DNA of 20,605 nt, taken from a virus (lineage: Duplodnaviria > Heunggongvirae > Uroviricota > Caudoviricetes). A program made the translations under genes and the position numbers. Under the pieces are notes generated by a model, which searched no databases, was not told where the DNA came from, and saw only the letters and a program-made list of their open reading frames with translations. Positions 1 to 17,914 of the stretch are shown here, piece after piece; within the stretch, counting starts at the first letter, position 1, and every line of letters begins with the position of its first letter. The stretch is from the IMG/VR virus record IMGVR_UViG_2740892209_000013; one strand, given 5' to 3'.

Positions 1-1284
1 CTACTTCTTCGCCTCTGCAACCACTTTGCTACCCACGCCGCGGTTATTGTATTCCCACATGCGGTTGTAGTTAGTGTCATTCAGATTGCGCTGTACTTCG
101 TCGTTATCATCAACGCTGCCGGTGTTACCCGCAAACGGACGGTTAGAGATCACCGCATCAGCCCACGGTTTGGCTGTGTTAAAACCTTCGTTGATGGCGC
201 TATCACGGATCACTACCTGACCGTTGGTATTGGCATCAACATCCAGCGAGCGGCCCAGTTGCGCCACGCCATCACCGGAAGCATTGAAACGGCTGTTTAC
301 GGCGAGGAAACCGTAGTAAATGTTGGACAGCGTAGCCGGTGCAAACACATACGCTTCTTGCTGGGTACGGGAGTTCACCACGCGGAATTCGGTGTTATCG
401 AACACCACTGCGCCGCGACCAGAAACGATATCCACATCCCCTTCAATATAGCTGTTGGTCACCAGCGTACGCGGCTGGCGATTCGTTTCCAGACGGTTCT
501 GCACACCGCTGTTGGTGACAAAGAAGGTGTTCTGACGACCGAGAATGTTGACGTTATTGATCTGCACTTTGTCGCCATCAGTACGCAGTGCCACCGCCGG
601 ATGGTTACCCGCATCTACGCTATCGCCCAGCGTGTTTTCGATGGTCAGGTTTTGCAGTTGCAGGCCATTGTTTTGTGACCAGAAGACCGCAGAGCAGAGA
701 ACACCGATACTGTCGCTGCGTTTACTCTGGCAGCTATCGTACATATACCACGCCGGTTTACCTGGCATATATTTGCCGCGCGGGTTGACGTCGTGACGCC
801 AGTCGGCAGGGCTCATGCCACCATCAAGGGAAAGCCCAATCTTCACATCAATCGGTTTTTCACCTGTACCGTACAGAGTAATTCCACCCGGAGCGGCAGG
901 GACATACACCGTTCCCTGATACTCACCAGGCATCACGGCAATATACTGGCGCTTGTTGGTACGCTTGATAATTGCCGCATCTACCGCCGCCTGAATCGTG
1001 GTATGCGTTACACCTTGAGTACCCGCCGGGCCGACAACAAAGTCAGGTTGCGCAGGCAGGGTAATCGGGGAAGGATTCCACGCTGCCGCACCTGGTGTCA
1101 GGGATGCAAAATAGTGTTGAGCATCGAAATTCTGCGCTTCTTTTGCCGACAGAATCGGGCGAGAAGAGGTACCAGGCGCGGTTTGATCAGAAGGACGTTG
1201 ATCGGGCGGTGTTGAGCTACAGGCGGTCAGCGTCACGCCAAAAGCCAATGCCAGCGCCAGACGGGAAACTGAAAATGTGTTCAC
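1..1284 (-). CDS. ybhC: YbhC, pectinesterase-family outer-membrane lipoprotein (acyl-CoA thioesterase); host gene flanking att-lambda
   Basis: 427-aa ORF with stop at 1-3; N-terminus MNTFSVSRLALALAFGVTLTACSS (lipoprotein signal) matches recalled E. coli YbhC; sits immediately outside the att core. Confidence 0.9.
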   Translation of the reverse strand: MNTFSVSRLALALAFGVTLTACSSTPPDQRPSDQTAPGTSSRPILSAKEAQNFDAQHYFASLTPGAAAWNPSPITLPAQPDFVVGPAGTQGVTHTTIQAAVDAAIIKRTNKRQYIAVMPGEYQGTVYVPAAPGGITLYGTGEKPIDVKIGLSLDGGMSPADWRHDVNPRGKYMPGKPAWYMYDSCQSKRSDSIGVLCSAVFWSQNNGLQLQNLTIENTLGDSVDAGNHPAVALRTDGDKVQINNVNILGRQNTFFVTNSGVQNRLETNRQPRTLVTNSYIEGDVDIVSGRGAVVFDNTEFRVVNSRTQQEAYVFAPATLSNIYYGFLAVNSRFNASGDGVAQLGRSLDVDANTNGQVVIRDSAINEGFNTAKPWADAVISNRPFAGNTGSVDDNDEVQRNLNDTNYNRMWEYNNRGVGSKVVAEAKK

Positions 1285-1330
1285 AGGTTGCTCCGGGCTA
1301 TGAAATAGAAAAATGAATCCGTTGAAGCCT

Positions 1331-1418
1331 GCTTTTTTATACTAAGTTGGCATTATAAAAAAACATTGCTTATCAATTTGTTGCAACGAACAGGTCACTA
1401 TCAGTCAAAATAAAATCA
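1331..1418. other. attL: attL (B-O-P'): lambda att core GCTTTTTTATACTAA at 1331-1345 followed by the P' arm with Int arm-type sites
   Basis: Exact 15-bp lambda common core; downstream sequence ...gttggcattataaaaaaacattgcttatcaatttgttgcaacgaacaggtcactatcagtcaaaataaaatcattatttg... matches recalled lambda attP P' arm; int follows directly. Confidence 0.9.
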
Positions 1419-2489
1419 TTATTTGATTTCAATTTTGTCCCACTCCCTGCCTCTGTCATCACGATACTGTGATGCCATGGTGTCCGACTTATGCCCGAGA
1501 AGATGTTGAGCAAACTTATCGCTTATCTGCTTCTCATAGAGTCTTGCAGACAAACTGCGCAACTCGTGAAAGGTAGGCGGATCCCCTTCGAAGGAAAGAC
1601 CTGATGCTTTTCGTGCGCGCATAAAATACCTTGATACTGTGCCGGATGAAAGCGGTTCACGACGAGTAGATGCAATTATGGTTTCTCCGCCAAGAATCTC
1701 TTTGCATTTATCAAGTGTTTCCTTCATTGATATCCCGAGAGCATCAACATGCAATGTTGTAGGGATGGCAATTTTTACGCCTGTTTTGCTTTGTTCGACA
1801 TAAAGATATCCATCTACGATATCAGACCACTTCATTTCGCATAAATCACCAACTCGCTGCCCGGTAACAACAGCCAGTTCCATTGCAAGTCTGAGCCAAC
1901 ATGGTGATGATTCTGCTGCTTGATAAATTTTCAGGTATTCGTCAGCCGTAAGTCTTGATCTCCTTACCTCTGATTTTGCTGCGCGAGTGGCAGCGACCGG
2001 GTTTGTTGTTATATGGCCTTCAGCTATTGCCTCTCGGAATGCATCGCTCAGTGTTGATCTGATTAACTTGGCTGACGCCGCCTTGCCCTCGTCTATGTAT
2101 CCATTGAGCATTGCCGCAATTTCTTTTGTGGTGATGTCTTCAAGTGGAGCATCAGGCAGCCCCCTCCTTATTGCTTTAATTTTGCTCATGTAATTTATGA
2201 GTGTCTTCTGCTTGATTCCTCTGCTGGCGAGGATTTTTTCGTAGCGATCAAGCCATGAATGTAACGTAACAGAATTATCACTGTTGATTCTCGCTGTCAG
2301 AGGCTTGTGTTTGTGTCCTGAAAATAACTCAATATTGGCCTGTATTGCTTCAGTGATTGCTATCCTCCTGTCTCGGCCTAAACCAAACTCTTTACCCGTC
2401 CTTGGGTCCCTGTAGCAGTAATATCCATTGTTTCTTATATAAAGGTTAGGGGGTAAATCCCGGCGCTCATGACTTCGCCTTCTTCCCAT
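1419..2489 (-). CDS. int: Lambda-type integrase (tyrosine recombinase)
   Basis: 356-aa ORF, MGRRRSHERRDLPPNLYIRNNGYYCYRDPRTGKEFGLGRDRR..., same length and near-identical to recalled lambda Int; adjacent to att. Confidence 0.97.
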   Translation of the reverse strand: MGRRRSHERRDLPPNLYIRNNGYYCYRDPRTGKEFGLGRDRRIAITEAIQANIELFSGHKHKPLTARINSDNSVTLHSWLDRYEKILASRGIKQKTLINYMSKIKAIRRGLPDAPLEDITTKEIAAMLNGYIDEGKAASAKLIRSTLSDAFREAIAEGHITTNPVAATRAAKSEVRRSRLTADEYLKIYQAAESSPCWLRLAMELAVVTGQRVGDLCEMKWSDIVDGYLYVEQSKTGVKIAIPTTLHVDALGISMKETLDKCKEILGGETIIASTRREPLSSGTVSRYFMRARKASGLSFEGDPPTFHELRSLSARLYEKQISDKFAQHLLGHKSDTMASQYRDDRGREWDKIEIK

Positions 2490-2685
2490 TTCTGATCCTC
2501 TTCAAAAGGCTACCTGTTACTGGTCGATTTAAGTCAACCTTTACCGCTGATTCGTGGAACAGATACTCTCTTCCATCCTTAACCGGAGGAGGGAATATCC
2601 TGCATTCGCGCACCCATCGACGAACTGTTTCAAGGCTTCTTGGGCGTCGCTGGCGTGCGTTCCACTCCTGAAGTGTCAAGTACAT
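2467..2685 (-). CDS. xis: Excisionase
   Basis: 72 aa, MYLTLQEWNARQRRPRSLETVRRWVRECRIFPPPVKDGREYLFHESAVKVDLNRP..., matches lambda Xis; 3' end overlaps int start as in lambda. Confidence 0.95.
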   Translation of the reverse strand: MYLTLQEWNARQRRPRSLETVRRWVRECRIFPPPVKDGREYLFHESAVKVDLNRPVTGSLLKRIRNGKKAKS

Positions 2686-2708
2686 CGCAAAGTCTCCGCA
2701 ATTACACG

Positions 2709-2733
2709 CAAGAAAAAGCCGCCATCAGGCGGC
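2709..2733 (-). terminator. Intrinsic terminator-like hairpin (GCCGCC-TGAT-GGCGGC then T-rich run on the minus strand) at the 3' end of orf55
   Basis: Perfect 6-bp GC stem and TTTTTCTT on the minus strand, read directly from the sequence. Confidence 0.4.
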
Positions 2734-2892
2734 TTGGTGTTCTTTCAGTTCTTCAATTCGAATATTGGTTATGTCTGCATGTGCTATCTGCGCCCATATC
2801 ATCCAGTGGTCATAGCAGTCATTGATGTTCTCTGCTTCGATAACTCTGTTGAATGGTTCTCCATTCCATTCACCTGTGACTCGGAAGTGCAT
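2725..2892 (-). CDS. Small conserved lambda early-left protein (orf55-like), function unknown
   Basis: Own translation: MHFRVTGEWNGEPFNRVIEAENINDCYDHWMIWAQIAHADITNIRIEELKEHQAA (55 aa); below the 60-aa cutoff of the ORF track; matches the recalled lambda ORF between xis and ea8.5. Confidence 0.65.
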   Translation of the reverse strand: MHFRVTGEWNGEPFNRVIEAENINDCYDHWMIWAQIAHADITNIRIEELKEHQAA

Positions 2893-3134
2893 TTATCATC
2901 TCCATAAAACAAAACCCGCCGTAGCGAGTTCAGATAAAAGAAATCCTCGTCAGTGCGAGGATGCTGTTCATTGCTGCTATACACTTTTTTGCTCTCAACG
3001 TAAGCGGTAGCTCATTCTGTTGGGTTGGTGCAGTTGCTTTTAGGAAATGCTATTTACCCCTTAAACGTCGGCTGAAAGAGCTAAAATCCATGCAAAAAAT
3101 TTACGCAATTTTGTGTATTATTGTGCAGTAAGTA

Positions 3135-3737
3135 ATGAGCTATTTTCTGCGCAAAAAATGGATGGTAAATTTGTCCGGGGCAGGAAAAATTTTATGGACG
3201 CTAAACATGAAAAAAGATTCGTATCCTTATTTGATTTGCATGACAGTTTCAGGCCTGATCTTTATTTTCCTTTTCTTCTGGTGGCGGGCAGATATTTACA
3301 GGGTCACGTTTCTTAATCAGAGTATATCCCACTATTACATTCTGTTTAGCATGGGAATAGCTTTTCTGTTATCTCTGTTTTGGGTTAAGAAGGGGATAGT
3401 AAAACAAAGCGGCTGGAAGAGTCTGTCAGCATACCTTAAGGTTTATGCAGGGATGTGCATATTTGCTGGATTTTTTCTGATTATACCCCTTACAACACTA
3501 ACTTATTTTTTGCCTGGAGAGACATCGTCTTATGTTGCACCGTATCGGTATACTTCCGGTAGTTCAAAAAGTTGTTCTGGAGCTGAGGTGGATGACCCCG
3601 ATCTACATGAGAATATTCGCATTTGCTATCCGTATGGCAATTATGAGTACGATAATATTATCTATGTTGAAAAGAAAATTAATACATTAGGTGCGGTAGT
3701 AACATATGCACAGACCGCGCGTGATGATACTGAATGA
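3135..3737 (+). CDS. Hypothetical membrane protein (about 3 predicted TM segments plus C-terminal soluble domain), non-lambda cargo replacing ea8.5/ea22; start uncertain (3135, 3162 or 3207)
   Basis: 200-aa ORF on the strand opposite the pL operon; hydrophobic stretches LICMTVSGLIFIFLFFWW, YYILFSMGIAFLLSLFWV, GMCIFAGFFLIIPLTTLTYFL; AT-rich; flanked by lambda homology that resumes at 3945. Confidence 0.6.
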   Translation: MSYFLRKKWMVNLSGAGKILWTLNMKKDSYPYLICMTVSGLIFIFLFFWWRADIYRVTFLNQSISHYYILFSMGIAFLLSLFWVKKGIVKQSGWKSLSAYLKVYAGMCIFAGFFLIIPLTTLTYFLPGETSSYVAPYRYTSGSSKSCSGAEVDDPDLHENIRICYPYGNYEYDNIIYVEKKINTLGAVVTYAQTARDDTE

Positions 3738-3771
3738 GATAGTATATAGCGGGCAAGTTTTAGTTAATTTA

Positions 3772-3800
3772 TCGAGGTAATATAATTTACCTCGACTCGT
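3772..3800 (+). terminator. Hairpin (TCGAGGTAA-tataat-TTACCTCGA) downstream of the membrane-protein gene, possible terminator
   Basis: 9-bp perfect inverted repeat 35 nt after the stop codon; following T-run is weak. Confidence 0.3.
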
Positions 3801-3947
3801 TTATTCTGGTATTAATATTTCGCTTTACGATCGATTTTTATCTGATGATATCATGCGGTTTTCATATACTGACTTACTGTCTTTTCTCCGTTAGCGATTT
3901 TCTCCTGCTCAGCGATGATTTTATCTTTGGCTTCTAGTTAATTTCGC

Positions 3948-4169
3948 TCACTTCGAACCTCTCTGTTTACTGATAAGTTCCAGATCCTCCTGGCAACTTG
4001 CACAAGTCCGACAACCCTGAACGGCCAGGCGTCTTCGCTCATCTATGGGATCGCCACACTCACAACAATGAGTGGCAGATATAGCCTGGTGGTTCAGGCG
4101 GCGCATTTTTATTGCTGTGTTGCGCTGTAATTCTTCAATTTCTGATGCTGAATCAATGATGTCTGCCAT
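3948..4169 (-). CDS. TraR/DksA-family C4 zinc-finger protein (lambda orf73-like)
   Basis: 73 aa with CxxC...CxxC (CCECGDPIDERRRLAVQGCRTCASC); stop overlaps the GTG of a 5-codon ea22 start remnant (GTGA); matches the recalled lambda early-left small ORF. Confidence 0.7.
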   Translation of the reverse strand: MADIIDSASEIEELQRNTAIKMRRLNHQAISATHCCECGDPIDERRRLAVQGCRTCASCQEDLELISKQRGSK

Positions 4170-4267
4170 CTTCCATTAATCCCTGAATTGTTGGTTAATA
4201 CGCTTGAGGGTGAATGCGAACAATAAAAAAGGAGCCTGTAGCTCCCTGATGATTTTGCTTTTCATGC

Positions 4268-4549
4268 TCACCGTTCCTTAAAGACGCCGTTTAACATGCC
4301 GATCGCCAGGCTTAAATGAGTCGGTGTGAATCCCATCAGCGTTACCGTTTCGCGGTGCTTCTTCAGTACGCTACGGCAAATGTCATCGACGTTTTTATCC
4401 GGAAACTGCTGTCTGGCTTTTTTGATTTCAGAATTAGCCTGACGGGCAATACTGCGAAGGGCGTTTTCTTGCTGAGGTGTCATTGAACAAGTCCCATGTC
4501 GGCAAGCATAAGCACACAGAATATGAAGCCCGCTGCCAGAAAAATGCAT
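4268..4549 (-). CDS. Small lambda early-left protein of unknown function (orf61 region homolog); alternative start at 4483 gives 71 aa
   Basis: ORF in conserved lambda-like sequence between the TraR-like gene and orf63; start not resolvable from sequence. Confidence 0.45.
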   Translation of the reverse strand: MHFSGSGLHILCAYACRHGTCSMTPQQENALRSIARQANSEIKKARQQFPDKNVDDICRSVLKKHRETVTLMGFTPTHLSLAIGMLNGVFKER

Positions 4550-4559
4550 TCAGTGGTTG

Positions 4560-4751
4560 TCATACCAGGTCTCTCTCATCTGCTTCTGCTTTCGCCACCA
4601 TCATTTCCAGCTTTTGCGAAAGGGATGTGGCTAACGTATGAAATTCTTCGTCTGTTTCTACTGGTATTGGCACAAACCTGACTCCAATTTGAGCAAGGCT
4701 ATGTGCCATCTCAATACTCGTTCTTAACTCAACAGGAGATGCTTTGTGCAT
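4560..4751 (-). CDS. Lambda orf63-like small protein
   Basis: 63-aa [66 protein letters not shown] in the lambda position upstream of orf60a and exo. Confidence 0.6.
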   Translation of the reverse strand: MHKASPVELRTSIEMAHSLAQIGVRFVPIPVETDEEFHTLATSLSQKLEMMVAKAEADERDLV

Positions 4752-4906
4752 ATCGCCTCCCGTTTATTATTTATCTCCTCAGCCAGCCGCTGGGCTTTCA
4801 GCGGATTTCGGATAACAGAAAGGCCGGGAAATACCCAGCCTCGCTTCGTAACGGAGTAGACGAAAGTGATCGTGCCTACGCGGATATTATCGTGAGGATG
4901 CTTCAT
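4724..4906 (-). CDS. Lambda orf60a-like small protein
   Basis: 60 aa from [24 protein letters not shown]...; stop overlaps exo start region as in lambda. Confidence 0.6.
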
Positions 4907-5583
4907 CGCCATTGCTCCCCAAATACAAAACCAATTTCAGCCAGTGCCTCGTCCATTTTTTCGATGAACTCCGGCACCATCTCGTCAAAACCCGCCATGT
5001 ACTTTTCATCCCGCTCAACCACGACATAATGCAGGCCTTCACGCTTCATACGCGGGTCATAGTTGGCAAAGTACCAGGCATCTTTTCGCGTCACCCACAT
5101 GCTGTACTGCACCTGGGCCATGTAAGCCGACTTTATGGCCTCGAAACCACCGAGCCTGAACTTCATGAAATCCCGGGAGGTAAACGGGCATTTCAGCTCA
5201 AGGCCGTTGCCGTCACTGCATAAACCATCGGGAGAGCAGGCGGTGCGCATACTTTCGTCGCGATAGATGATCGGGGATTCAGTAACATTCACGCCGGAAG
5301 TGAATTCAAACAGGGTTCTGGCGTCGTTCTCGTACTGTTTTCCCCAGGCCAGCGCCTTAGCATTAACTTCCGGAGCCACACCGGTGCAAACCTCAGCCAG
5401 CAGGGTGTGGAAGTAGGACATTTTCATGTCAGGCCACTTCTTTCCTGAGCGGGGCTTTGCTATCACGTTGTGAACTTCTGAAGCGGTGATGACGCCGAGC
5501 CGTAATTTGTGCCATGCATCATCCCCCTGTTCGACAGCTCTCACGTCGATCCCGGTACGCTGCAGGATAATGTCCGGTGTCAT
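4903..5583 (-). CDS. exo: Lambda exonuclease (Red-alpha), 5'-3' dsDNA exonuclease
   Basis: 226 aa, [65 protein letters not shown]..., matches lambda Exo; overlaps bet stop. Confidence 0.97.
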
Positions 5584-6365
5584 GCTGCCACCTTCTGCTC
5601 AGTGGCTTTCTGTTTCAGGAATCCAAGAGCTTTCACTGCTTCGGCCTGTGTCAGTTCTGACGATGCGCGAATGTCGCGGCGAAATATCTGGGAACAGAGC
5701 GGCAATAAGTCGTCATCCCATGTTTTATCCAGGGCGATTAGCAGAGTGTTAATCTCCTGCATGGTTTCATCGTTAACCGGAGTGATGTCGCGTTCCGGCT
5801 GGCGTTCTGCAGTGTATGCAGTATTTTCGACAATGCGCTCGGCTTCATCCTTGTCATAGATACCAGCAAATCCGAAGGCCAGACGGGCACACTGAATCAT
5901 AGCTTTATGCCGTAACATCCGTTTAGGATGCGACTGCCACGGCCCCGTGATTTCTCTGCCTTCGCGGGTTTTGAATGGTTCGCGGCGGCATTCATCCATC
6001 CATTCGGTAACGCAGATCGGATGATTACGGTCCTTGCGGTAAATCCGGCATGTACAGGATTCATTGTCCTGCTCAAAGTCCATGCCATCAAACTGCTGGT
6101 TTTCATTGATGATGCGGGACCAGCCATCAACGCCCACCACCGGAACGATGCCGTTCTGCTTATCAGGGAAGGCGTAAATTTCTTTCGTCCACGGATTAAG
6201 GCCGTACTGGTTGGCGACGATCAACAATGCGATGAACTGCGCATCGCTGGCATCGCCTTTAAATGCCGTCTGGCGAAGAGTGGTGATCAGTTCCTGTGGG
6301 TCGACAGAATCCATGCCGACACGTTCAGCCAGCTTCCCTGCCAGCGTTGCGAGTGCTGTACTCAT
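5580..6365 (-). CDS. bet: Red-beta single-strand annealing recombinase
   Basis: 261 aa, [82 protein letters not shown]..., matches lambda Bet. Confidence 0.97.
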
Positions 6366-6370
6366 CCGTT

Positions 6371-6787
6371 TTATACCTCTGAATCAATATCAACCTGATG
6401 GTGAGCAATGGTTTCAACCATGTACCGGATGTGTTCTGCCATGCGCTCCTGAAACTCAACATCGTCATCAAACGCACGGGTAATGGCTTTTTTGCTGGCC
6501 CCGTGGCGTTGCAAATGACCGATGCATAGCGATTCAAACAGGTGCTGGGGCAGGCCTTTTTCCATGTCGTCTGCCAGTTCTGCCTCTTTCTCTTCACGGG
6601 CTATCTGCTGGTAGTGACGCGCCCAGCTCTGAGCCTCAAGACGATCCTGAATGTAATAAGCGTTCATGGCCGAACTCCTGAAATAGCTGTGAAAATATCG
6701 CCCGCGAAATGCCGGGCTGATTAGGAAAACAGGAAAGGGGGTTAGTGAATGCTTTTGCTTGATCTCAGTTTCAGTATTAATATCCAT
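6371..6787 (-). CDS. gam: Gam, RecBCD inhibitor
   Basis: 138 aa, [61 protein letters not shown]..., matches lambda Gam. Confidence 0.97.
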
Positions 6788-6885
6788 TTTTTATAAGCGT
6801 CGACGGCCTCACGAAACATCTTTTCATCGCCAATAAAAGTGGCGATAGTGAATTTAGTCTGGATAGCCATAATTGTTTGATCCAT
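6742..6885 (-). CDS. kil: Kil, host cell-division (FtsZ) inhibitor
   Basis: 47 aa [47 protein letters not shown] inside the longer ORF-track frame 6742..7011; matches lambda Kil. Confidence 0.85.
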
Positions 6886-7018
6886 TTTTTGGGACTCCTG
6901 GCTGATTAAGTATGTCGATAAGGCGTTTCCATCCGTCACGTAATTTACGGGTGATTCGTTCAAGTAAAGATTCGGAAGGGCAGCCAGTAACAGGCCACCC
7001 TGCAATGGCATATTGCAT
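6854..7018 (-). CDS. cIII: CIII, inhibitor of FtsH-mediated CII degradation
   Basis: Own translation, below ORF-track cutoff: [54 protein letters not shown] (54 aa), near-identical to lambda CIII. Confidence 0.85.
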   Translation of the reverse strand: MQYAIAGWPVTGCPSESLLERITRKLRDGWKRLIDILNQPGVPKNGSNNYGYPD

Positions 7019-7090
7019 GGTGTGCTCCTTATTTATACATAACGAAAAACGCCTCGAGTGAAGCGTAATTGGTATGCGGTAACGCCGCGC

Positions 7091-7459
7091 TCAGGCGGCC
7101 TTGATAGTCATATCATCTGAATCAAATATTCCTGATGTATCGATATCGGTAATTCTTATTCCTTCACTACCATCCATTGGAGGCCATCCTTCCTGACCAT
7201 TTCCATCATTCCAGTCGAACTCACACACAACACCATATGCATTTAAGTCGCTTGAAATTGCTATAAGCAGAGCATGTTGCGCCAGCATGATTAATACAGC
7301 ATTTAATACAGAGCCGTGTTTATTGAGTCGGTATTCAGAGTCTGACCAGAAATTATTAATCTGGTGAAGTTTTTCCTCTGTCATTACGTCATGGTCGATT
7401 TCAATTTCTATTGATGCTTTCCAGTCGTAATCAATGATGTATTTTTTGATGTTTGACAT
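7091..7459 (-). CDS. ea10: Ea10 (lambda Ssb-like early protein)
   Basis: 122 aa, MSNIKKYIIDYDWKASIEIEIDHDVMTEEKLHQINNFWSDSEYRLNKHGSVLNAVLIMLAQ..., matches lambda Ea10. Confidence 0.85.
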   Translation of the reverse strand: MSNIKKYIIDYDWKASIEIEIDHDVMTEEKLHQINNFWSDSEYRLNKHGSVLNAVLIMLAQHALLIAISSDLNAYGVVCEFDWNDGNGQEGWPPMDGSEGIRITDIDTSGIFDSDDMTIKAA

Positions 7460-7477
7460 CTGTTCATATCCTCACAG

Positions 7478-7505
7478 ATAAAAAATCGCCCTCATCTTGG
7501 AGGGC
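7478..7505 (-). terminator. Intrinsic terminator-like hairpin (GCCCTC-n6-GAGGGC then TTTTTTAT on the minus strand) upstream of ea10 in the pL operon
   Basis: Stem-loop plus T-tract read on the minus strand; same element present in recalled lambda sequence. Confidence 0.4.
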
Positions 7506-7647
7506 AAAGAAGATTTCCAATAATCAGAACAAGTCGGCTCCTGTTTAGTTACGAGCGACATTGCTCCGTGTATTCACTCGTTGGAATGAATACACAGCGC
7601 TGTGTTTATTCTGTTGTTTGCGTGAAAATGAAATCCGCCTGAGCGGG

Positions 7648-8517
7648 TTATGACCACTTTTTGTTTGGGTTTCGTTGGTGAGCGTGGTTTACAGGATTAT
7701 TTGATATACCCCATAACTCTGACTCGCTTATCTCTACACGAGAGAAAGACCTGCTTTCTTTCAGTTCTTTTATAAACCTAGAACCTAAGATGACATCTAT
7801 TGTACCAGAAAGTTCTTGTAAAAGATCTTTGTTTTTTCTGAGGAAGAAAATATCTTCTTTATATTTAATTTTTACATAGAATTTATTCTGTATTTTTAAT
7901 ATATCAAAGCATGGCAGATATCTATATCCCTCATATTTTCGCCACTGCTTAACAATTATAACATCTTTTTCATTTACTGCATTAATCAGCCCAAGACAAA
8001 GTACAGGTATGAATATTCTATTGTCTGCCGAAAGCGTACAATTATCACCACCAGGCAAATATGTATAAATCATGTCGGAATTTTTATACGCATCAACGAA
8101 TGCACGTAAGAAGCGTACATATTTTTGCCATCCGTTTATACCGAATTTACCATATAAGTATTCTTTATTTGTTAGAAGAAAACTATTTGTATCAGGATCC
8201 TTATCTACAGACCTGTCGATAAGATCTCCAACTACGTTTACAAAGTCAAAGACAGAGTTTAATAAGAACAATTGTCTTTCAGTAGGGCGAATTTCAATTA
8301 TGTAGCCAGGATGAAGACGATATTGCATCTGCTTACGAAGTATACCGAACGCTTGGGTCCGAGCATCTGAAAGCAACTTCTTGTCGCCATCGCCGTGAGC
8401 ATTGTTTCTAATAAAACTGATATAATTTGCTAATTTTTCAGCCTCTTTTTTGTGTTTTTTTCGCTCTGATGCTGAGTCTATTGGTTTTGGTATGGACTTG
8501 TAATCAATCTTCTTCAT
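7648..8517 (-). CDS. Hypothetical 289-aa soluble protein, non-lambda cargo in the ral/sieB slot immediately downstream of N; no recognisable family
   Basis: 293-aa ORF (8529) or 289 aa from the second ATG at 8517, which has a GAGGT Shine-Dalgarno 6 nt upstream; first ATG overlaps the ancestral N stop (ATGA); very AT-rich relative to flanks; lambda homology breaks at about 7620 and 8530. Confidence 0.7.
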   Translation of the reverse strand: MKKIDYKSIPKPIDSASERKKHKKEAEKLANYISFIRNNAHGDGDKKLLSDARTQAFGILRKQMQYRLHPGYIIEIRPTERQLFLLNSVFDFVNVVGDLIDRSVDKDPDTNSFLLTNKEYLYGKFGINGWQKYVRFLRAFVDAYKNSDMIYTYLPGGDNCTLSADNRIFIPVLCLGLINAVNEKDVIIVKQWRKYEGYRYLPCFDILKIQNKFYVKIKYKEDIFFLRKNKDLLQELSGTIDVILGSRFIKELKESRSFSRVEISESELWGISNNPVNHAHQRNPNKKWS

Positions 8518-8525
8518 TACGTACC

Positions 8526-8849
8526 TCATGCCAATGGAATGGATTCCCCTTTAACCTTTTGTCTTCCTTGACAAGTTATACCGAACTCACCTGGCTTGCT
8601 ATACCAAACTCGATGATTCTTGCGCTCAATACGTTACAGGTTGCTTTCAATCTGTTCGTGGTATTCAGCCAGCACCGTAAGGTCTATCGGATTCAGTGCG
8701 CTTTCTACTCGTGATTTCGGTTTGCGATTCAGCGAGAGAATAGGGCGGTTAACTGGTTTAGCGCTTACCCCAACCAACAGGGGATTTGCTGCTTTCCATT
8801 GAGCCTGTTTCTCTGCGCGACGTTCGCGGCGGCGTGTTTGTGCATCCAT
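8526..8849 (-). pseudogene. N: Antiterminator N with in-frame ochre stop (TAA at 8634-8636, codon 72; lambda has CAA Gln); translated product would be 71 aa
   Basis: MDAQTRRRERRAEKQAQWKAANPLLVGVSAKPVNRPILSLNRKPKSRVESALNPIDLTVLAEYHEQIESNL then stop; the same frame continues RIERKNHRVWYSKPGEFGITCQGRQKVKGESIPLA, recognisably the N C-terminal region, to a TGA at 8526-8528. Confidence 0.8.
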
Positions 8850-9006
8850 CTGGATTCTCCTGTCAGTTAGCTTTGGTTGTGTGTGGGAGTCGTAGTCCTG
8901 AACGAAAACACCCCGCAATGGCACATTGGCAGCTAATCCGGATTCGCACTTCCGGCCAATGCTTCGTTTCGTATCACACACACCAAAGCCTTCTGCTTTG
9001 AATGCT

Positions 9007-9037
9007 GCCCTTCTTCAGGGCTTAATTTTTAAGAGCC
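9007..9037 (-). promoter_or_regulatory. nutL: nutL (boxA-like GGCTCTTAAAAATTAA and boxB hairpin GCCCTGAAGAAGGGC)
   Basis: boxB is identical to recalled lambda nutL boxB; boxA has one mismatch; lies between pL and N. Confidence 0.75.
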
Positions 9038-9082
9038 TCACCTTCAATGGTGGTCAGTGCGTCCTGCTGATGGCTTAAAATT

Positions 9083-9150
9083 ACAAGGAAGATTGTATGT
9101 TGTAAACAAGAAATATTGTAAAAAGGGGCGTGAAAAACAAACTCCATTGT
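9083..9150 (-). promoter_or_regulatory. Phage-434-type OL operators and pL: ACAAGGAAGATTGT (9083-9096), ACAAGAAATATTGT (9106-9119), ACAAACTCCATTGT (9137-9150)
   Basis: Three 14-bp ACAA-N6-TTGT sites, the 434 repressor operator architecture, read directly from the sequence; lambda homology ends at about 9070. Confidence 0.8.
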
Positions 9151-9200
9151 TTTTAAACGGAAAATAGTTTGTTTTTTTGTTATCGAGATTGAGGTGGGGA

Positions 9201-10553
<1,353 letters not shown>

Positions 10554-10561
10554 GACATTCC

Positions 10562-10593
10562 CGCTCTTACACATCCCAGCCCTGAAAAAGGGC
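10562..10593 (+). promoter_or_regulatory. nutR: nutR (boxA CGCTCTTACACA, boxB GCCCTGAAAAAGGGC)
   Basis: Lambda nutR boxA/boxB read directly, just downstream of cro. Confidence 0.8.
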
Positions 10594-10672
10594 ATCAAAA
10601 TAAACCACACCTATGGTGTATGCATTTATTTGCATACATTCAATCAATTGTTATCTAAGGAAATACTTACAT

Positions 10673-10966
10673 ATGGTTCGTGCAAACAAACGCAACGAGG
10701 CTCTACGAATCGAGAGTGCGTTGCTTAACAAAATCGCAATGCTTGGAACTGAGAAGACAGCGGAAGCTGTGGGAGTTGATAAGTCGCAGATCAGCAGGTG
10801 GAAGAGGGATTGGATTCCAAAGTTCTCAATGCTGCTTGCTGTTCTTGAATGGGGTGTCGTCGACGACGACATGGCTCGATTGGCACGACAAGTTGCTTCG
10901 ATTCTCACCAATAAAAAACGCCCGGCGGCAACCGAGCGTTCTGAACAAATCCAGATGGAATTCTGA
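10673..10966 (+). CDS. cII: CII transcriptional activator
   Basis: 97 aa MVRANKRNEALRIESALLNKIAMLGTEKTAEAVGVDKSQISRWKRDWIPKFSMLLAVLEWGVVDDDMARLARQVASILTNKKRPAATERSEQIQMEF, near-identical to lambda CII. Confidence 0.95.
   Translation: MVRANKRNEALRIESALLNKIAMLGTEKTAEAVGVDKSQISRWKRDWIPKFSMLLAVLEWGVVDDDMARLARQVASILTNKKRPAATERSEQIQMEF
10682..10695 (-). promoter_or_regulatory. pRE -35 region / CII binding site (TTGC-N6-TTGC on the minus strand)
   Basis: Reverse complement TTGCGTTTGTTTGC inside the cII 5' coding region, as in lambda pRE. Confidence 0.6.
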
Positions 10967-10988
10967 GGTTATTACTGGAACTATCAAC
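10910..10988 (-). ncRNA. oop: oop antisense RNA (about 77 nt, antisense to the cII 3' end)
   Basis: Plus strand aataaaaaacgcccggcggcaaccgagcgttctgaacaaatccagatgga...ctatcaac matches the complement of recalled lambda oop RNA, including its GC hairpin and U-tract terminator on the minus strand. Confidence 0.65.
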
Positions 10989-10998
10989 AGGAGTCATT

Positions 10999-11898
10999 AT
11001 GACAAATACAGCAAAAATACTCAACTTCGGCAGAGGTAACTTTGCCGGACAGGAGCGTAATGTGGCAGATCTCGATGATGGTTACGCCAGACTATCAAAT
11101 ATGCTGCTTGAGGCTTATTCAGGCGCAGATCTGACCAAGCGACAGTTTAAAGTGCTGCTTGCCATTCTGCGTAAAACCTATGGGTGGAATAAACCAATGG
11201 ACAGAATCACCGATTCTCAACTTAGCGAGATTACAAAGTTACCTGTCAAACGGTGCAATGAAGCCAAGTTAGAACTCGTCAGAATGAATATTATCAAGCA
11301 GCAAGGCGGCATGTTTGGACCAAATAAAAACATCTCAGAATGGTGTATCCCTCAAAACGAGGGAAAATCCCCTAAAACGAGGGATAAAACATCCCTCAAA
11401 TTGGGGGATTGCTATCCCTCAAAACAGGGGAACACAAAAGACACTAATACAAAAGAAAATAGAAAAGATTATTCGTCAGAGAATTCTGGCGAATCCTCTG
11501 ACCAGCCAGAAAACGACCTTTCTGTGGTGAAACCTGATGCTGCAATTCAGAGCGGCAGCAAATGGGGGACAGCAGAAGACCTGACCGCCGCAGAGTGGAT
11601 GTTTGACATGGTGAAGACTATCGCGCCATCAGCCAGAAAACCGAATTTTGCAGGGTGGGCTAACGATATCCGCCTGATGCGTGAACGTGACGGACGTAAC
11701 CACCGCGATATGTGTGTGCTGTTCCGCTGGGCCTGCCAGGACAACTTCTGGTCCGGTAATGTGCTGAGCCCGGCCAAACTCCGCGACAAGTGGACCCAGC
11801 TCGAAATCAACCGTAACAAGCAACAGGCAGTCGTGACAGCCAGCAAACCAAAACTCGACCTGACAAACACAGACTGGATTTACGGGGTGGATTTATGA
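10999..11898 (+). CDS. O: Replication initiator O
   Basis: 299 aa MTNTAKILNFGRGNFAGQERNVADLDDGYARLSNMLLEAYSGADLTKRQFKVLLAILRKTYGWNKPMDRITDSQLSEITKLP..., matches lambda O. Confidence 0.97.
   Translation: MTNTAKILNFGRGNFAGQERNVADLDDGYARLSNMLLEAYSGADLTKRQFKVLLAILRKTYGWNKPMDRITDSQLSEITKLPVKRCNEAKLELVRMNIIKQQGGMFGPNKNISEWCIPQNEGKSPKTRDKTSLKLGDCYPSKQGNTKDTNTKENRKDYSSENSGESSDQPENDLSVVKPDAAIQSGSKWGTAEDLTAAEWMFDMVKTIAPSARKPNFAGWANDIRLMRERDGRNHRDMCVLFRWACQDNFWSGNVLSPAKLRDKWTQLEINRNKQQAVVTASKPKLDLTNTDWIYGVDL
11345..11475. repeat. ori-lambda: four directly repeated O-binding iterons (ATCCCTCAAAACGAGGGA-type) plus adjacent AT-rich segment, inside the O gene
   Basis: Four tandem about 19-bp repeats each with an internal inverted repeat (tccctc...gaggga), followed by an A+T-rich run. 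Confidence 0.85.
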
Positions 11899-12596
11899 AA
11901 AACATCGCCGCACAGATGGTTAACTTTGACCGTGAGCAGATGCGTCGGATCGCCAACAACATGCCGGAACAGTACGACGAAAAGCCTCAGGTACAGCAGG
12001 TAGCGCAGATCATCAACGGTGTGTTCAGCCAGTTACTGGCAACTTTCCCGGCGAGCCTGGCTAACCGTGACCAGAACGAACTGAACGAAATCCGCCGCCA
12101 GTGGGTTCTGGCTTTCCGGGAAAACGGGATCACCACAATGGAACAGGTTAACGCAGGAATGCGCGTAGCCCGTCGGCAGAATCGACCATTTCTGCCATCA
12201 CCCGGGCAGTTTGTTGCATGGTGCCGGGAAGAAGCATCCGTTATCGCCGGACAGCCAAACGTCAGCGAGCTGGTTGATATGGTTTACGAGTATTGCCGGA
12301 AGCGAGGCCTGTATCCGGATGCGGAGTCTTATCCGTGGAAATCAAACGCGCACTACTGGCTGGTTACCAACCTGTATCAGAACATGCGGGCCAATGCGCT
12401 TACTGATGCGGAATTACGGCGCAAGGCTGCCGATGAACTGTCCTGTATGACCGCACGAATTAACCGTGGTGAGGCTATACCTGAACCAGTAAAACAACTT
12501 CCTGTCATGGGCGGTAGACCTCTAAATCGTGCACAGGCTCTGGCGAAGATCGCAGAAATCAAAGCTAAGTTTGGGCTGAAAGGAGCAAGTGTATGA
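11895..12596 (+). CDS. P: Replication protein P (DnaB helicase loader)
   Basis: 233 aa MKNIAAQMVNFDREQMRRIANNMPEQYDEKPQVQQVAQIINGVFSQLLATF..., matches lambda P; ATGA overlap with O stop. Confidence 0.97.
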   Translation: MKNIAAQMVNFDREQMRRIANNMPEQYDEKPQVQQVAQIINGVFSQLLATFPASLANRDQNELNEIRRQWVLAFRENGITTMEQVNAGMRVARRQNRPFLPSPGQFVAWCREEASVIAGQPNVSELVDMVYEYCRKRGLYPDAESYPWKSNAHYWLVTNLYQNMRANALTDAELRRKAADELSCMTARINRGEAIPEPVKQLPVMGGRPLNRAQALAKIAEIKAKFGLKGASV

Positions 12597-12883
12597 CGGG
12601 CAAAGAGGCAATTATTCATTACCTGGGGACGCATAATAGCTTCTGTGCGCCGGACGTTGCCGCGTTAACAGGCGCAACAGTAACCGGCATAAATCAGGCC
12701 GCGGCTAAAATGGCACGGGCAGGTCTTCTGGTTATCGAAGGTAAGGTCTGGCGAACGGTGTATTACCGGTTCGCTACTAGGGAAGAACGGGAAGGAAAGA
12801 TGAGCACGAACCTGATTTTTAAGGAGTGTCGCCAGAGTGCCGCGATGAAACGGGTATTGGCGGTATATGGAGTTAAAAGATGA
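12593..12883 (+). CDS. ren: Ren (Rex exclusion resistance)
   Basis: 96 aa MTGKEAIIHYLGTHNSFCAPDVAALTGATVTGINQAAAKMARAGLLVIEGKVWRTVYYRF..., matches lambda Ren. Confidence 0.9.
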   Translation: MTGKEAIIHYLGTHNSFCAPDVAALTGATVTGINQAAAKMARAGLLVIEGKVWRTVYYRFATREEREGKMSTNLIFKECRQSAAMKRVLAVYGVKR

Positions 12884-12907
12884 CCATCTACATCACTGAG
12901 CTAATAA

Positions 12908-12940
12908 CAGGCCTGCTGGTAATCGCAGGCCTTTTTATTT
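12908..12940 (+). terminator. tR2 intrinsic terminator
   Basis: Hairpin AGGCCTGC-tggtaatc-GCAGGCCT followed by TTTTTATTT between ren and ninB, as in lambda. Confidence 0.7.
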
Positions 12941-12956
12941 GGGGGAGAGGGAAGTC

Positions 12957-13397
12957 ATGAAAAAACTAACCTTTGAAATTCGATCTCCAGCACATCAGCA
13001 AAACGCTATTCACGCAGTACAGCAAATCCTTCCAGACCCAACCAAACCAATCGTAGTAACCATTCAGGAACGCAACCGCAGCTTAGACCAAAACAGGAAG
13101 CTATGGGCCTGCTTAGGTGACGTCTCTCGTCAGGTTGAATGGCATGGTCGCTGGCTGGATGCAGAAAGCTGGAAGTGTGTGTTTACCGCAGCATTAAAGC
13201 AGCAGGATGTTGTTCCTAACCTTGCCGGGAATGGCTTTGTGGTAATAGGCCAGCCAACCAGCAGGATGCGTGTAAGCGAATTTGCGGAGCTATTAGAGCT
13301 TATACAGGCATTCGGTACAGAGCGTGGCGTTAAGTGGTCAGACGAAGCGCGACTGGCTCTCGAATGGAAAGCGCGATGGGGAGATCGGGCTGCATGA
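12957..13397 (+). CDS. ninB: NinB (Orf family recombination mediator)
   Basis: 146 aa from MKKLTFEIRSPAHQQNAIHAVQQILPDPTKPIVVTIQERNRSLDQNRKLWACLGDVSRQVEWHGRW..., matches lambda NinB. Confidence 0.9.
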   Translation: MKKLTFEIRSPAHQQNAIHAVQQILPDPTKPIVVTIQERNRSLDQNRKLWACLGDVSRQVEWHGRWLDAESWKCVFTAALKQQDVVPNLAGNGFVVIGQPTSRMRVSEFAELLELIQAFGTERGVKWSDEARLALEWKARWGDRAA

Positions 13398-13921
13398 CTA
13401 TCAAATCAAATACGCCAGCACACGACAAGGACTGCTGGCAAACGCCGCTTTGGCTTTTTGATGCACTGGATATTGAGTTTGGATTCTGGCTGGATTCGGC
13501 AGCGAGCGACAAAAACGCTCTGTGCGCTCACTGGCTAACTGAGGCTGACGACGCGCTAAATTCTGAGTGGATAAGCCACGGTGCAATCTGGAATAACCCA
13601 CCGTACAGCAATATCAGGCCGTGGGTGGAAAAAGCCGCTGAGCAGTGCATACAACAGCGACAGACGGTAGTGATGCTTGTGCCAGAGGATATGTCTGTCG
13701 GATGGTTCAGCAAGGCTCTGGAGAGTGTTGACGAAGTTCGTATTATCACTGATGGACGGATTAATTTTATCGAACCATCGACAGGGCTGGAGAAGAAGGG
13801 AAACAGCAAAGGCTCCATGCTGCTGATTTGGCGACCGTTCATTAGTCCTCGACGGATGTTTACTATCGTATCCAAAGCGGCATTGATGGCGATCGGGCAG
13901 GGCGTCAGGAGGGCGGCATGA
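13394..13921 (+). CDS. Phage DNA N6-adenine methyltransferase (Dam-like, NPPY motif), orphan; occupies the lambda ninC/ninD position
   Basis: 175 aa from [26 protein letters not shown]...; catalytic NPPYS motif present; start overlaps ninB stop (ATGA); no adjacent restriction endonuclease ORF. Confidence 0.8.
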
Positions 13922-14100
13922 GGCGACAACGACGAAGTTTCACCGACATCATCTGCGAAAACTGCAAATACCTTCCAACGAAACGCTCCAGAAATAAACG
14001 CAAGCCAATCCCAAAAGAATCTGACGTAAAAACCTTCAACTACACGGCTCACCTGTGGGATATCCGGTGGCTAAGACATCGTGCGAGGAATACAAGGTGA
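13918..14100 (+). CDS. ninE: NinE
   Basis: 60 aa [60 protein letters not shown], matches lambda NinE. Confidence 0.85.
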
Positions 14101-14267
14101 TTGACCCAAATCGAAGTTACGAACAAGAAAGCGTCGAGCGGGCTTTAACGTGCGCTAATTGCGGTCAGAAGCTGCATGTGCTGGAAGTTCACGTGTGTGA
14201 GCACTGCTGTGCAGAGCTGATGAGCGATTCGAATAGCTCGATGCACGAGGAAGAAGATGATGGCTAA
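14097..14267 (+). CDS. ninF: NinF (probable GTG start overlapping ninE stop)
   Basis: [56 protein letters not shown], matches lambda NinF; start codon assignment is uncertain. Confidence 0.65.
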
Positions 14268-14871
14268 ACCAGCGCGAAGACGATGTAAAAACGATGAATG
14301 TCGGGAATGGTTTCACCCTGCATTCGCTAATCAGTGGTGGTGCTCTCCAGAGTGTGGAACCAAGATAGCACTCGAACGACGAAGTAAAGAACGCGAAAAA
14401 GCGGAAAAAGCAGCAGAGAAGAAACGACGACGAGAGGAGCAGAAACAGAAAGATAAACTTAAGATTCGAAAACTCGCCTTAAAGCCCCGCAGTTACTGGA
14501 TTAAACAAGCCCAACAAGCCGTAAACGCCTTCATCAGAGAAAGAGACCGCGACTTACCATGTATCTCGTGCGGAACGCTCACGTCTGCTCAGTGGGATGC
14601 CGGACATTACCGGACAACTGCTGCGGCACCTCAACTCCGATTTGATGAACGCAATATTCACAAGCAATGCGTGGTGTGCAACCAGCACAAAAGCGGAAAT
14701 CTCGTTCCGTATCGCGTCGAACTGATTAGCCGCATCGGGCAGGAAGCAGTAGACGAAATCGAATCAAACCATAACCGCCATCGCTGGACTGTCGAAGAGT
14801 GCAAGGCGATCAAGGCAGAGTACCAACAGAAACTCAAAGACCTGCGAAACAGCAGAAGTGAGGCTGCATGA
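14257..14871 (+). CDS. ninG: NinG / Rap recombination protein
   Basis: 204 aa [63 protein letters not shown]..., matches lambda NinG. Confidence 0.9.
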
Positions 14872-15533
14872 ATATCTACGAAAGAATTGATGGCAGCAAA
14901 TACCGAAATATTTGGGTAGCTGGCGACCTGCACGGATGCTACACGAACCTGATGAACAAACTGGATACGATTGGATTCGACACCAAAAAAGACCTGCTCA
15001 TCTCGGTTGGCGATTTGGTTGATCGCGGTACAGAGAACGTCGAATGTCTGGAATTAATCACATTCCCCTGGTTCAGAGCTGTGCGTGGAAACCATGAGCA
15101 AATGATGATTGATGGCTTATCAGAGCGTGGAAACGTTAATCACTGGCTGCTTAATGGCGGTGGCTGGTTCTTTAATCTCGATTACGACAAAGAGACTCTG
15201 GCTAAAGTTCTTGCCCATAAAGCAGAAGAACTTCCGTTAATCATCGAACTGGTGAGCAAAGATAAAAAATATGTCATTTGCCACGCCGATTATCCTTGTG
15301 ATAAATACGAGTTTGGAAAGCCAGTTGATCATCAGCAGGTAATCTGGAACCGCGAACGAATCAGCAACTCACAAGACGGGATCGTGAAAGAAATCAAAGG
15401 CGCGGACACGTTCATCTTTGGTCATACGCCAGCAGTGAAACCACTCAAATTTGCCAACCAGATGTATATCGATACTGGCGCAGTGTTCTGCGGAAACCTC
15501 ACATTGATTCAGGTACAGGGAGAAGGCGCATGA
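14868..15533 (+). CDS. Lambda-type Ser/Thr protein phosphatase (orf221 / NinI, PPP family)
   Basis: 221 aa with metallophosphatase motifs GDLHG, GDLVDRG, GNHE; matches lambda PPase. Confidence 0.9.
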
Positions 15534-15619
15534 GACTCGAAAGCGTAGCTAAATTTCATTCGCCAAAAAGCCCGATGATGAGCGACTCACTACTGGCCAC
15601 AGTTTATTGGTTTTCGTAA
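15530..15619 (+). pseudogene. Q: Remnant of lambda-type antiterminator Q (first 20 codons only, then unrelated sequence and stop after 29 codons)
   Basis: ATGA overlap with phosphatase stop as in lambda; [20 protein letters not shown] identical to the lambda Q N-terminus, then SLLATVYWFS-stop; lambda Q is 207 aa. Confidence 0.7.
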
Positions 15620-15744
15620 CTGAGTCATTTTATTATTTTATTGCAACTTTTAATCTTTTATAGTGCGAAATAAATGGAGCTGGCATTCATTTCGCACTTT
15701 ATGTTTTTGTTGGACTTATGTTATTTTGATTGAATTCAATTCAG

Positions 15745-16704
15745 TTAAAAAAAGAAGGTGATTGCTCCATTTATAAATGAATAGTCATCCCCTGTCTTGA
15801 ATTCTGATGTTACTTTATTAAATGCTAGTGTGAAGGCTACAGGTGCATACCCAATTGTTGCGCCAACTTGATATTCATCAACAGTTTTGTTTAGCGATAC
15901 TGTTGTTTGTTTCGTCTGTATTGTTTTTCCTTCGAGAGTATAGTTGCGATTGACATCTCGTCTTTCCATACCTGCAAAAATCTTGTATTTGAATCCGCTT
16001 GTATCGGACATATGCATTAAACCACGGGGAGCCAGCAGACCAAAGCCATTATCCGAATTGAAGGTTTTATCATTACCAATGGCAATGGTTGCGCCATATG
16101 CTACATATTGAAATAAGTTTCCAGTAACAGCAGAAACTTCAGGGTATAATCCAACATTAGCACCTAAAATATCCATACTTGGTGTCATGGATAGCATCCC
16201 TTTTACAGTATAACCGTAGCGATTCTCTATTTGATCATCCCATGCATGATATTTTTCTGCCCCAATAATCTCATGAGCTTTATTTTGTACTTTCTGACCG
16301 CCTGCGTCGGGGCCAACAACACCTATGTCAGTACCTAATCGATAGCGAATCCAGTCATTCGCAAGGGAGTTCCATTCAATACCAGTGTGAGTGTATGCAC
16401 TAAAAGCTCTGTCTCCAGTTACAGCTGTGTTGTGTCTTTTATTACTGCCTGATGGAGAGTAAATATCTTGCGCAATATGGAGAGATAATTGGCTCGAGTC
16501 TGAGATATCGTGGCTATATCCCAGAAATAAGCCTTGTGAGTAATCATCTCTGTTTTCATGTTTATTGCCATAAATATCATTAAGTATTGGTTGAAACTTC
16601 CCTGCATCATCATTTGCTAATGATAATGCAAGGCTGTTCGCGATAGCTGAACACGTGGTAAATGACAGAGCAATAAAGACGCCAGCGATGACACTTTTTT
16701 TCAT
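15745..16704 (-). CDS. Outer-membrane beta-barrel protein, probably an LpxR-family lipid A 3'-O-deacylase (cargo gene)
   Basis: 319 aa; signal peptide MKKSVIAGVFIALSFTTCSAIA; C-terminal aromatic ...GAITFFF typical of beta-barrel OMPs; length and motifs resemble LpxR as recalled (not searched); AT-rich with a long AT-rich 5' region. Confidence 0.55.
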   Translation of the reverse strand: MKKSVIAGVFIALSFTTCSAIANSLALSLANDDAGKFQPILNDIYGNKHENRDDYSQGLFLGYSHDISDSSQLSLHIAQDIYSPSGSNKRHNTAVTGDRAFSAYTHTGIEWNSLANDWIRYRLGTDIGVVGPDAGGQKVQNKAHEIIGAEKYHAWDDQIENRYGYTVKGMLSMTPSMDILGANVGLYPEVSAVTGNLFQYVAYGATIAIGNDKTFNSDNGFGLLAPRGLMHMSDTSGFKYKIFAGMERRDVNRNYTLEGKTIQTKQTTVSLNKTVDEYQVGATIGYAPVAFTLAFNKVTSEFKTGDDYSFINGAITFFF

Positions 16705-17177: not shown

Positions 17178-17867
17178 ATGAATACCCAATATTTACAGTA
17201 TGTTCGTGAGCAACTTATGGCAGCTACTGCTGACTTGAACGGAGCAACGAAAGGCCAGCTCGAAGCCTGGCAGGAGCATGCACAATTTGATACTGGTACA
17301 TACAAACGAAAGAAGCCGCGCATTCTGGATGTGGTAACTGGCAAGATGATTACGCTGGATAATACGCCGACTTCCGGTAAGCAGTCGTACGCAAAAGGTT
17401 CATCCATTGCTTTGGTCAGCCCGGTTGAATTCTCAACCTCTTCATGGCGCCGCGCGGTTTTGTCTCTCGATGAACATCAGAAAGCATGGTTGCTTTGGTG
17501 TTACAGCGAAAGCGTTCGATGGGGGCATCAGGTCACCATAACGCAATGGGCATGGAGCGAGTTTAAAGATTTGTTAAGTAACAGAAAAATTGCAGGTAAG
17601 ACACTGGATCGCCTGAAGACGTTAATCTGGCTGGCTGCACAGGATGTGAAGAGCGAACTTGCAGGGCGTGAGGCCTATGAATACCAGACACTGGCATCAT
17701 TGGTGGGAGTGACAACAAAAAACTGGTCCGAGACATTTACTGAACGCTGGGTTGCAATGAAGCACATTTTTCTACAGCTTGATAGTGATGCTTTATTGCT
17801 TGTGACGAGAACACGTTCAAAACAAAAGGCAGCATTTTTACAGCAAAATATTGCAAAACTGGATTAA
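17178..17867 (+). CDS. Putative late-gene antiterminator of a non-lambda Q family (by position); start uncertain (17094 or 17178)
   Basis: 229 aa from the ATG with an AAGGA Shine-Dalgarno; no Cys4 zinc finger; followed immediately by a consensus-like promoter and a terminator, the arrangement expected of Q / pR' / tR'. Confidence 0.4.
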   Translation: MNTQYLQYVREQLMAATADLNGATKGQLEAWQEHAQFDTGTYKRKKPRILDVVTGKMITLDNTPTSGKQSYAKGSSIALVSPVEFSTSSWRRAVLSLDEHQKAWLLWCYSESVRWGHQVTITQWAWSEFKDLLSNRKIAGKTLDRLKTLIWLAAQDVKSELAGREAYEYQTLASLVGVTTKNWSETFTERWVAMKHIFLQLDSDALLLVTRTRSKQKAAFLQQNIAKLD

Positions 17868-17879: not shown

Positions 17880-17914
17880 TCATGCAAATTTGGTATGTTG
17901 TAAAAAATGTATAA

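Follow-up and report, generated by a model that had tools for sequence, protein, structure and literature searches.

The locus considered here raises the question of whether a lambdoid prophage can be expected to produce phage when its antitermination gene N is interrupted by a single in-frame stop codon, and whether this stop is a genuine property of the prophage. The window, that is, the whole stretch of 20,605 nucleotides that was analysed, is a 434-type prophage adjoining ybhC at the lambda attachment site of E. coli and matches E. coli chromosomes along its whole length, with genes in the order ybhC, int, xis, exo, bet, gam, kil, cIII, ea10, a gene for a 289-aa protein, N, hex, cI-434, cro, cII, O, P, ren, the nin genes, lpxR, Q and a SASA-family esterase gene. 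Translation of the minus strand from 8849 to 8526 gave 71 codons (MDAQTRRRERRAEKQAQWKAANPLLVGVSAKPVNRPILSLNRKPKSRVESALNPIDLTVLAEYHEQIESNL; 8637..8849), an ochre TAA as codon 72 (8634..8636), 35 further in-frame codons (RIERKNHRVWYSKPGEFGITCQGRQKVKGESIPLA; codons 73-107, 8529..8633), which are now untranslated, and the natural TGA at 8528..8526. The changed base is position 8636, which is A on the plus strand and T on the coding strand, corresponding to a G-to-A and a C-to-T change, respectively. Accordingly, the list of open reading frames closes the N frame at 8634, where it gives a 115-aa frame that starts at an upstream GTG and includes the 71-aa product starting at ATG. The original prediction had placed a TAA at codon 72, where CAA is found elsewhere, within a frame that runs on into C-terminal N sequence up to 8526-8528. 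Both observations were confirmed, codon 72 being CAA in phage 434, in lambda and in all E. coli prophage copies that were examined.

The interrupted gene represents the phage 434 allele of N, since all of its 106 other residues are identical to phage 434 N, including 71/71 residues before the stop and all of residues 73-107. Compared with lambda N, identity amounts to 70 of the 71 residues before the stop (residues 1-64 are identical and the one difference is K65E) and to 28 of the 35 residues after it. The description of the frame as matching lambda N for 71 codons was therefore close but not exact, and the allele is in fact that of phage 434. In line with these comparisons, residues 2-36 score 92.9 bits against the N36 family (PF11438; cut-off 25), an alignment of the restored protein with the lambda N chain (6gov_N) of the antitermination complex structure 6GOV runs the full length of residues 1-106, and the coordinates 8526..8849 are annotated as 'antitermination protein N' in relatives (RefSeq) and as N in phage 434. 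On sequence grounds, membership in the lambda/434 group of N proteins can be regarded as secure, and chance is no issue for the stop, which sets the window apart, by one defined base, from many sequences that are otherwise the same. With TAA at codon 72, the locus is an N gene by descent and is better not listed as a functional N. Among in-frame ATG, GTG and TTG codons after the TAA only a TTG at codon 106 was found, which offers no usable restart, so that no C-terminal N fragment can be made. N is the only one of the 35 coding sequences in the window with an internal stop, and the other 34 are intact. The window ends at 20605 and the lysis and structural genes lie beyond it, so the prophage may or may not be defective for other reasons as well.

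The base-by-base comparison of a 701-base stretch around N with phage 434 and E. coli 2015C-3163 revealed a single mismatch, window position 8636, and the identity of this stretch was 99.9% to phage 434 (OL657226/OL657227) as well as to dozens of complete E. coli chromosomes. The suggestion that the stop arose by a point mutation is thus well founded, the C-to-T change at 8636 being the only difference within the 701 bases from phage 434 and the E. coli prophage copies. Codon 72 is CAA in the relatives L001-L006 and in the contig-end copies described below, and TAA only in L007, the window's own assembly. An exact-protein look-up led to BBUT01000006.1, a 196-kb contig of the draft GCA_001592525.1, to which window positions 1-18849 (18,849 bases) are identical with zero mismatches, and in which window position 8636 corresponds to position 185102. 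The proposed recent origin of the mutation also found support in three independent relatives that are otherwise identical to the window over 3.9-7.1 kb and differ from it solely at 8636, namely L022 (GCA_002459615.1) over 5.1 kb, L023 (a Logan contig from 7 samples) over 3.95 kb, and L027 (GCA_001592575.1, whose WGS prefix BBUV is close to the BBUT of the window) over 7.1 kb. A survey with 61 bases centred on the stop as the query located the site at 577 places in 530 complete E. coli genomes, and in 34 phage records. None of them carried the T allele, and matches reached 60/61 at best in every case. Likewise, exact-pattern scans of three contig collections, comprising 185,579 species-representative genomes, IMG/VR and JGI metagenome contigs, found no copy of this allele.

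The window and its three nearest complete genomes are separated by seven shared differences. One of them is synonymous and lies in ybhC, four replace an amino acid in a prophage gene, one is the N stop, and one, at 20323, leaves the protein unchanged. The four sense differences (6988, 7998, 12253 and 12686) cause A11T in cIII, G174C in the 289-aa protein, L120Q in P and S32G in ren. Taken as 'private' SNPs, these seven differences, five of them non-synonymous or nonsense, might suggest general decay or poor assembly, but this explanation was rejected because G174C and P L120Q occur together with intact N: exact-allele look-ups located the window's alleles of the 289-aa protein and of P on many further contigs, all with full-length N. 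Since at least G174C, L120Q and S32G are common to many other contigs, they represent lineage polymorphisms and not strain-specific decay. Truly private to the window's assembly are only position 8636 and a 1-bp difference in the length of a T run at about 16889-16894, in the intergenic region between lpxR and ylcG, which is T5 compared to T6 in six relatives (L004, L005, L006, L017, L024 and L025). The shortened run could be real or a homopolymer error. With relatives differing at 8636 only and the allele absent from the other genomes and contigs surveyed, the substitution at this position is a single event and the most recent one in the lineage. The change from CAA (Gln72) to TAA thus appears to be a single, very recent C-to-T transition, the base itself resting on one draft assembly.

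Public data hold a number of entries that resemble this truncated N. The exact 71-aa product is recorded on 19 contigs and the 115-aa version with the GTG start on 3 more, some of these entries being named 'antitermination protein N, partial'. The 19+3 contigs were rejected as independent carriers of the stop allele, because in all but two the sequence is wild-type and breaks off at 'CTG' or 'CTGCA'; in L008-L018 and L020 the frame stops at the contig end with the wild-type CA at codon 72. An internal TAA is present in the window and in L007, and since the sequence continues for about 8.6 kb and 10 kb past the stop, respectively, the TAA of the window is not a contig-end artefact. The assemblies that break inside N at the same base were made with different assemblers and carry different immunity regions. 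Their breaks at codon 72 probably mark a branch point between co-resident lambdoid prophages that share N up to this codon, the third base of which is polymorphic. A further contig, L019 (Logan SRR28272614), was rejected as a second stop allele, as it carries a different lesion, an IS3-family terminal repeat directly after codon 71. The lesion is found at positions 2375-2411 of L019, and the first three bases of the terminal inverted repeat, TGA, provide the stop; the 25 bases past codon 71 are identical (25/25) to the end of an IS annotated in L002 (about 5362-6671). The coincidence at residue 71 was largely forced by the query, which asked for products ending exactly at this residue.

The question of whether the T at 8636 might have been introduced into the draft assembly by faulty sequencing or consensus calling, the strain's N being intact, follows directly from the allele having been seen with certainty in only one assembly. 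This assembly is moreover a scaffolded draft with a short run of N letters (32 N, with 33 N in its sister L027), and its private T run at about 16889-16894, shorter by 1 bp, could itself be a homopolymer error. However, the rest of the window is clean, with all 34 other coding sequences intact, and its other differences from the complete genomes are common to independent contigs. Mixed reads from co-resident prophages would also not account for the base, because the other N alleles are either CAA or differ only in the third base of codon 72 and thus give no T at its first position. In addition, the contig is reported in 2 samples plus 3 similar places. Weighing these points, we consider an error at this base improbable.

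Concerning the run of N letters itself, the 32 N at window positions 19373-19404 are inserted relative to every relative and their flanks are directly contiguous in L004, L005, L006 and L018, so that the run hides no missing bases. It lies inside the SASA-family esterase gene, the frame of which is intact once the N are removed, and L027 has its similar 33-N run inside ea10. Both runs resemble scaffold gaps whose length was misjudged.

The consequences of the truncation can be deduced from the well-studied organization of the lambda protein. As had been proposed, the 71-aa product retains the RNA- and NusA-binding regions and loses the C-terminus that binds RNA polymerase (RNAP): N(1-71) includes the boxB-binding arginine-rich motif (ARM; N36, residues 2-36) and the NusA-binding middle part, as judged from the N36 match and the identity to lambda and 434 N, with residues 1-64 equal to those of lambda N, and lacks the untranslated residues 73-107. 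NusA binding has been mapped to the central region of lambda N, at about residues 34-47 (Muteeb et al., 2012; PMC3526286). The C-terminal part binds RNAP (PMC3526286, PMC8632103) and, in the solved complex, enters the RNAP cavity and the exit channel (PMC8632103). When read-through at nutR/tR1 was measured in vivo, wild-type lambda N gave 38.0%, and deletions of residues 101-107, 91-107 and 81-107 gave 39.8%, 36.0% and 35.1%, respectively, while the deletion of residues 73-107 was nearly inactive with 7.3%, a value that lies among those of H-19B N point mutants unable to bind RNA (3.7-7.9%) (Muteeb et al., 2012; PMC3526286). By analogy, N(1-71) would be null for antitermination. Genetic, biochemical and structural work has already defined what residues 73-107 do.

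An inactive N will matter only where the transcription circuit requires it, and the window carries all elements of such a circuit. N is the first gene of the pL operon, downstream of nutL, with a matching nutR after cro, a layout as in phage 434. On the minus strand, nutL (9007..9036) lies upstream of N on the pL transcript and consists of boxA at 9036..9030 and a boxB hairpin at 9021..9007; this boxB (GCCCTGAAGAAGGGC) has exactly the sequence annotated as Nutl in lambda, and nutL is annotated in phage 434. On the plus strand, nutR (10563..10593), with boxA at 10563-10569 and boxB at 10579-10593, was found by pattern match between cro and cII, and the phage 434 annotation (nutR, 'boxA right') has it at the equivalent place. 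The terminator scan detected a leftward, tL1-like intrinsic terminator (7486..7507, minus strand; an 8-pair stem followed by TTTTTTAT) between the 289-aa gene and ea10, at the very site where phage 434 has an annotated terminator (locus positions 4594-4623, equivalent to window 7478-7507). Past this terminator lie ea10, cIII, kil, gam, bet, exo, xis and int. The same scan detected a strong rightward intrinsic terminator (12909..12932, plus strand; an 8-pair stem with 6 GC pairs, followed by TTTTATTT) between ren and ninB, upstream of the nin genes and Q, which we take, by its position, to be lambda tR2. The terminators scored here are intrinsic ones, whereas tR1 is Rho-dependent. With the nut sites, the tL1-like terminator and the terminator at the tR2 position all present, the circuit of this prophage needs N. 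Downstream of the N-dependent terminators, the gene of the late antiterminator Q (17178..17867, plus strand) is an intact open reading frame, and the Pfam family Phage_antiter_Q matches the identical gene of L007. The 434-type cI repressor gene (9602..10234, minus strand), annotated as a LexA-like repressor in phage 434, shows no difference from its relatives and no internal stop, and immunity and lysogeny are expected to be maintained.

In summary, the best explanation of these observations, to which we assign a probability of about 0.8, is a real and very recent C-to-T stop in the N gene of a 434-type prophage, by which N-dependent expression is lost and no virions are to be expected. Upon inactivation of the repressor, pL would transcribe N, and translation would end after residue 71. 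The resulting N(1-71) should still bind boxB RNA and NusA, and would lack residues 73-107, the part of lambda N that reaches into the RNAP cavity and the RNA exit channel and renders the enzyme resistant to termination. Leftward transcription would consequently stop at 7507-7486, with no expression of cIII, kil, gam, bet, exo, xis and int, and rightward transcription would stop at tR1 and at 12909-12932, with little or no Q and no late gene expression. The prophage would keep its 434 immunity and stable inheritance, and would do so without efficient excision, kil-mediated killing of the host or virions. The suggestion that N is defective and the prophage possibly defective for lytic growth is therefore supported, the growth defect being inferred, and most likely the stop prevents phage production by this prophage. 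Exceptions would be expected if the stop reverts or is suppressed, or if N is supplied in trans. Lambda N mutants are slightly leaky, and N-independent variants are known.

Two further possibilities accept the stop as real and dispute its effect. Enough N to keep the prophage inducible could be supplied by a host ochre-suppressor tRNA or by natural read-through at the UAA-C context. There is nothing positive in favor of such a bypass within the scope of the window, to which the host tRNA genes do not belong, and the window itself contains no tRNA gene and hence no phage-borne suppressor tRNA. The surroundings of the stop are identical to the wild type except for the C-to-T change, so that no recoding signal has evolved there. 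Among the stop codons of E. coli, UAA is the one least prone to read-through, and natural isolates seldom carry ochre suppressors. A bypass thus seems most unlikely.

Alternatively, N(1-71) could have kept or gained a useful activity, either partial antitermination near nut or a dominant-negative effect on the N of superinfecting lambda- or 434-type phages, and the allele could have been selected for it. The fragment does keep the ARM and the NusA-binding region, N at nut can itself hinder Rho near the nut site (PMC3526286), and with the separate IS insertion right after codon 71 in L019, truncation at this point arose twice. However, the deletion of residues 73-107 allowed only 7.3% read-through even at the nut-proximal tR1, like RNA-binding-dead mutants (PMC3526286), and as the intact cI represses pL in the lysogen, the fragment would normally not be present to exclude an incoming phage. 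Moreover, the allele is confined to one assembly and shows no spread, and the agreement with L019 was, as described above, largely imposed by the form of the query. We therefore regard a retained or gained activity as very unlikely. In its strongest form, the truncation would be a selected 'grounding' allele or active fragment, with N(1-71) acting as a dominant-negative, Nun-like blocker of N-dependent phages that share the lambda/434 nut specificity. The independent IS3-family insertion in L019 would in that case mean that N had been cut short twice, by convergence, where the RNAP-binding segment begins; this reading is scarcely probable. A simple loss of N function by a recent nonsense mutation remains the preferred reading.

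The allele can be placed next to several known systems. The closest is N of phage 434 (OL657226, CPT_434_49) together with the E. coli prophage copies (WP_000340003.1), the DNA of which is identical over 701 bases except for one. The proteins agree at 106/107 positions, codon 72 being CAA in phage 434 and TAA in the window, and in both cases the gene occupies the same place after pL and nutL with the same neighbors, i.e. cI-434, hex and the gene encoding the Nun C-terminal peptide. Lambda N (P03045; 6GOV, 5LM7, 5MS0, 1QFQ) agrees in 70/71 residues up to the stop, and the nutL boxB sequence is identical. The differences are seven substitutions in the last 35 residues, which belong to the 434 allele, and the premature stop in the window. 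Premature stops in N are also known from the classical lambda N nonsense (sus/amber) mutants, e.g. Nam7 and Nam53, and from N-defective prophages in laboratory strains. In N nonsense mutants delayed-early and late expression is expected to fail, and the prophage to be non-lethal and to yield no phage, unless it is rescued by suppression or by N in trans. In contrast to the classical amber mutants, the stop described here is an ochre codon, affects another codon, and occurs in a prophage of 434 immunity in a natural isolate. The engineered deletion of residues 73-107 of lambda N, which leaves a product of residues 1-72 and is strongly defective (PMC3526286), corresponds almost exactly to the 71 residues made here, although it was plasmid-borne and derived from lambda N, whereas the window contains a natural nonsense mutation in the 434 allele within a prophage.

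The stop might also affect the neighboring 289-aa gene (7648..8517, minus strand), which starts 8 nt after the natural N stop according to the list of open reading frames and, as annotated in phage 434, has a ribosome-binding site that extends over the last bases of N. This gene is now preceded by 116 untranslated nucleotides and may lose translational coupling, or be subject to polarity, through the N stop. The 289-aa protein has no Pfam match. In a phage collection its last 50 residues matched only HK022 Nun and Nun-like termination factors (29/29 non-self matches, 36-54% identity, E values of about 1e-2 to 6e-2), in agreement with the depositor's label in phage 434, 'Nun C-terminal peptide-containing protein'. 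A gene for a large protein with an RNAP-arresting Nun tail is thus located right after N and upstream of the first leftward terminator.

Two other regions of the window deserve mention. The hex ('repressor protection') gene (9201-9605, minus strand) follows cI and encodes 134 aa in the phage 434 record and in metagenome gene calls, where it overlaps the end of cI, and a shorter product of 103 aa (9201-9512) in RefSeq; a disputed start codon is noted in the 434 record, and the hex product has no Pfam match. Between the nin region and Q, window positions 15530-16704 contain a 72-bp remnant of another antiterminator gene, which is annotated as a partial pseudogene in the relatives, together with lpxR. 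The latter encodes a lipid A deacylase, lies on the opposite strand, and constitutes a cargo gene inserted upstream of the replacement Q.

Taken together, our analysis describes an ordinary, textbook kind of prophage defect that is already known in kind, and since the role of residues 73-107 has been established before, nothing new is learned from it about N itself. Its value lies in the annotation: the prophage at the lambda attB site of one strain is identified as the carrier of an N pseudogene, and this prophage probably can make no phage but continues to provide 434 immunity and to express cargo genes of the lysogenic state such as lpxR. With one base changed and the rest of the window intact, this prophage would represent a clean example of the earliest step in prophage domestication.
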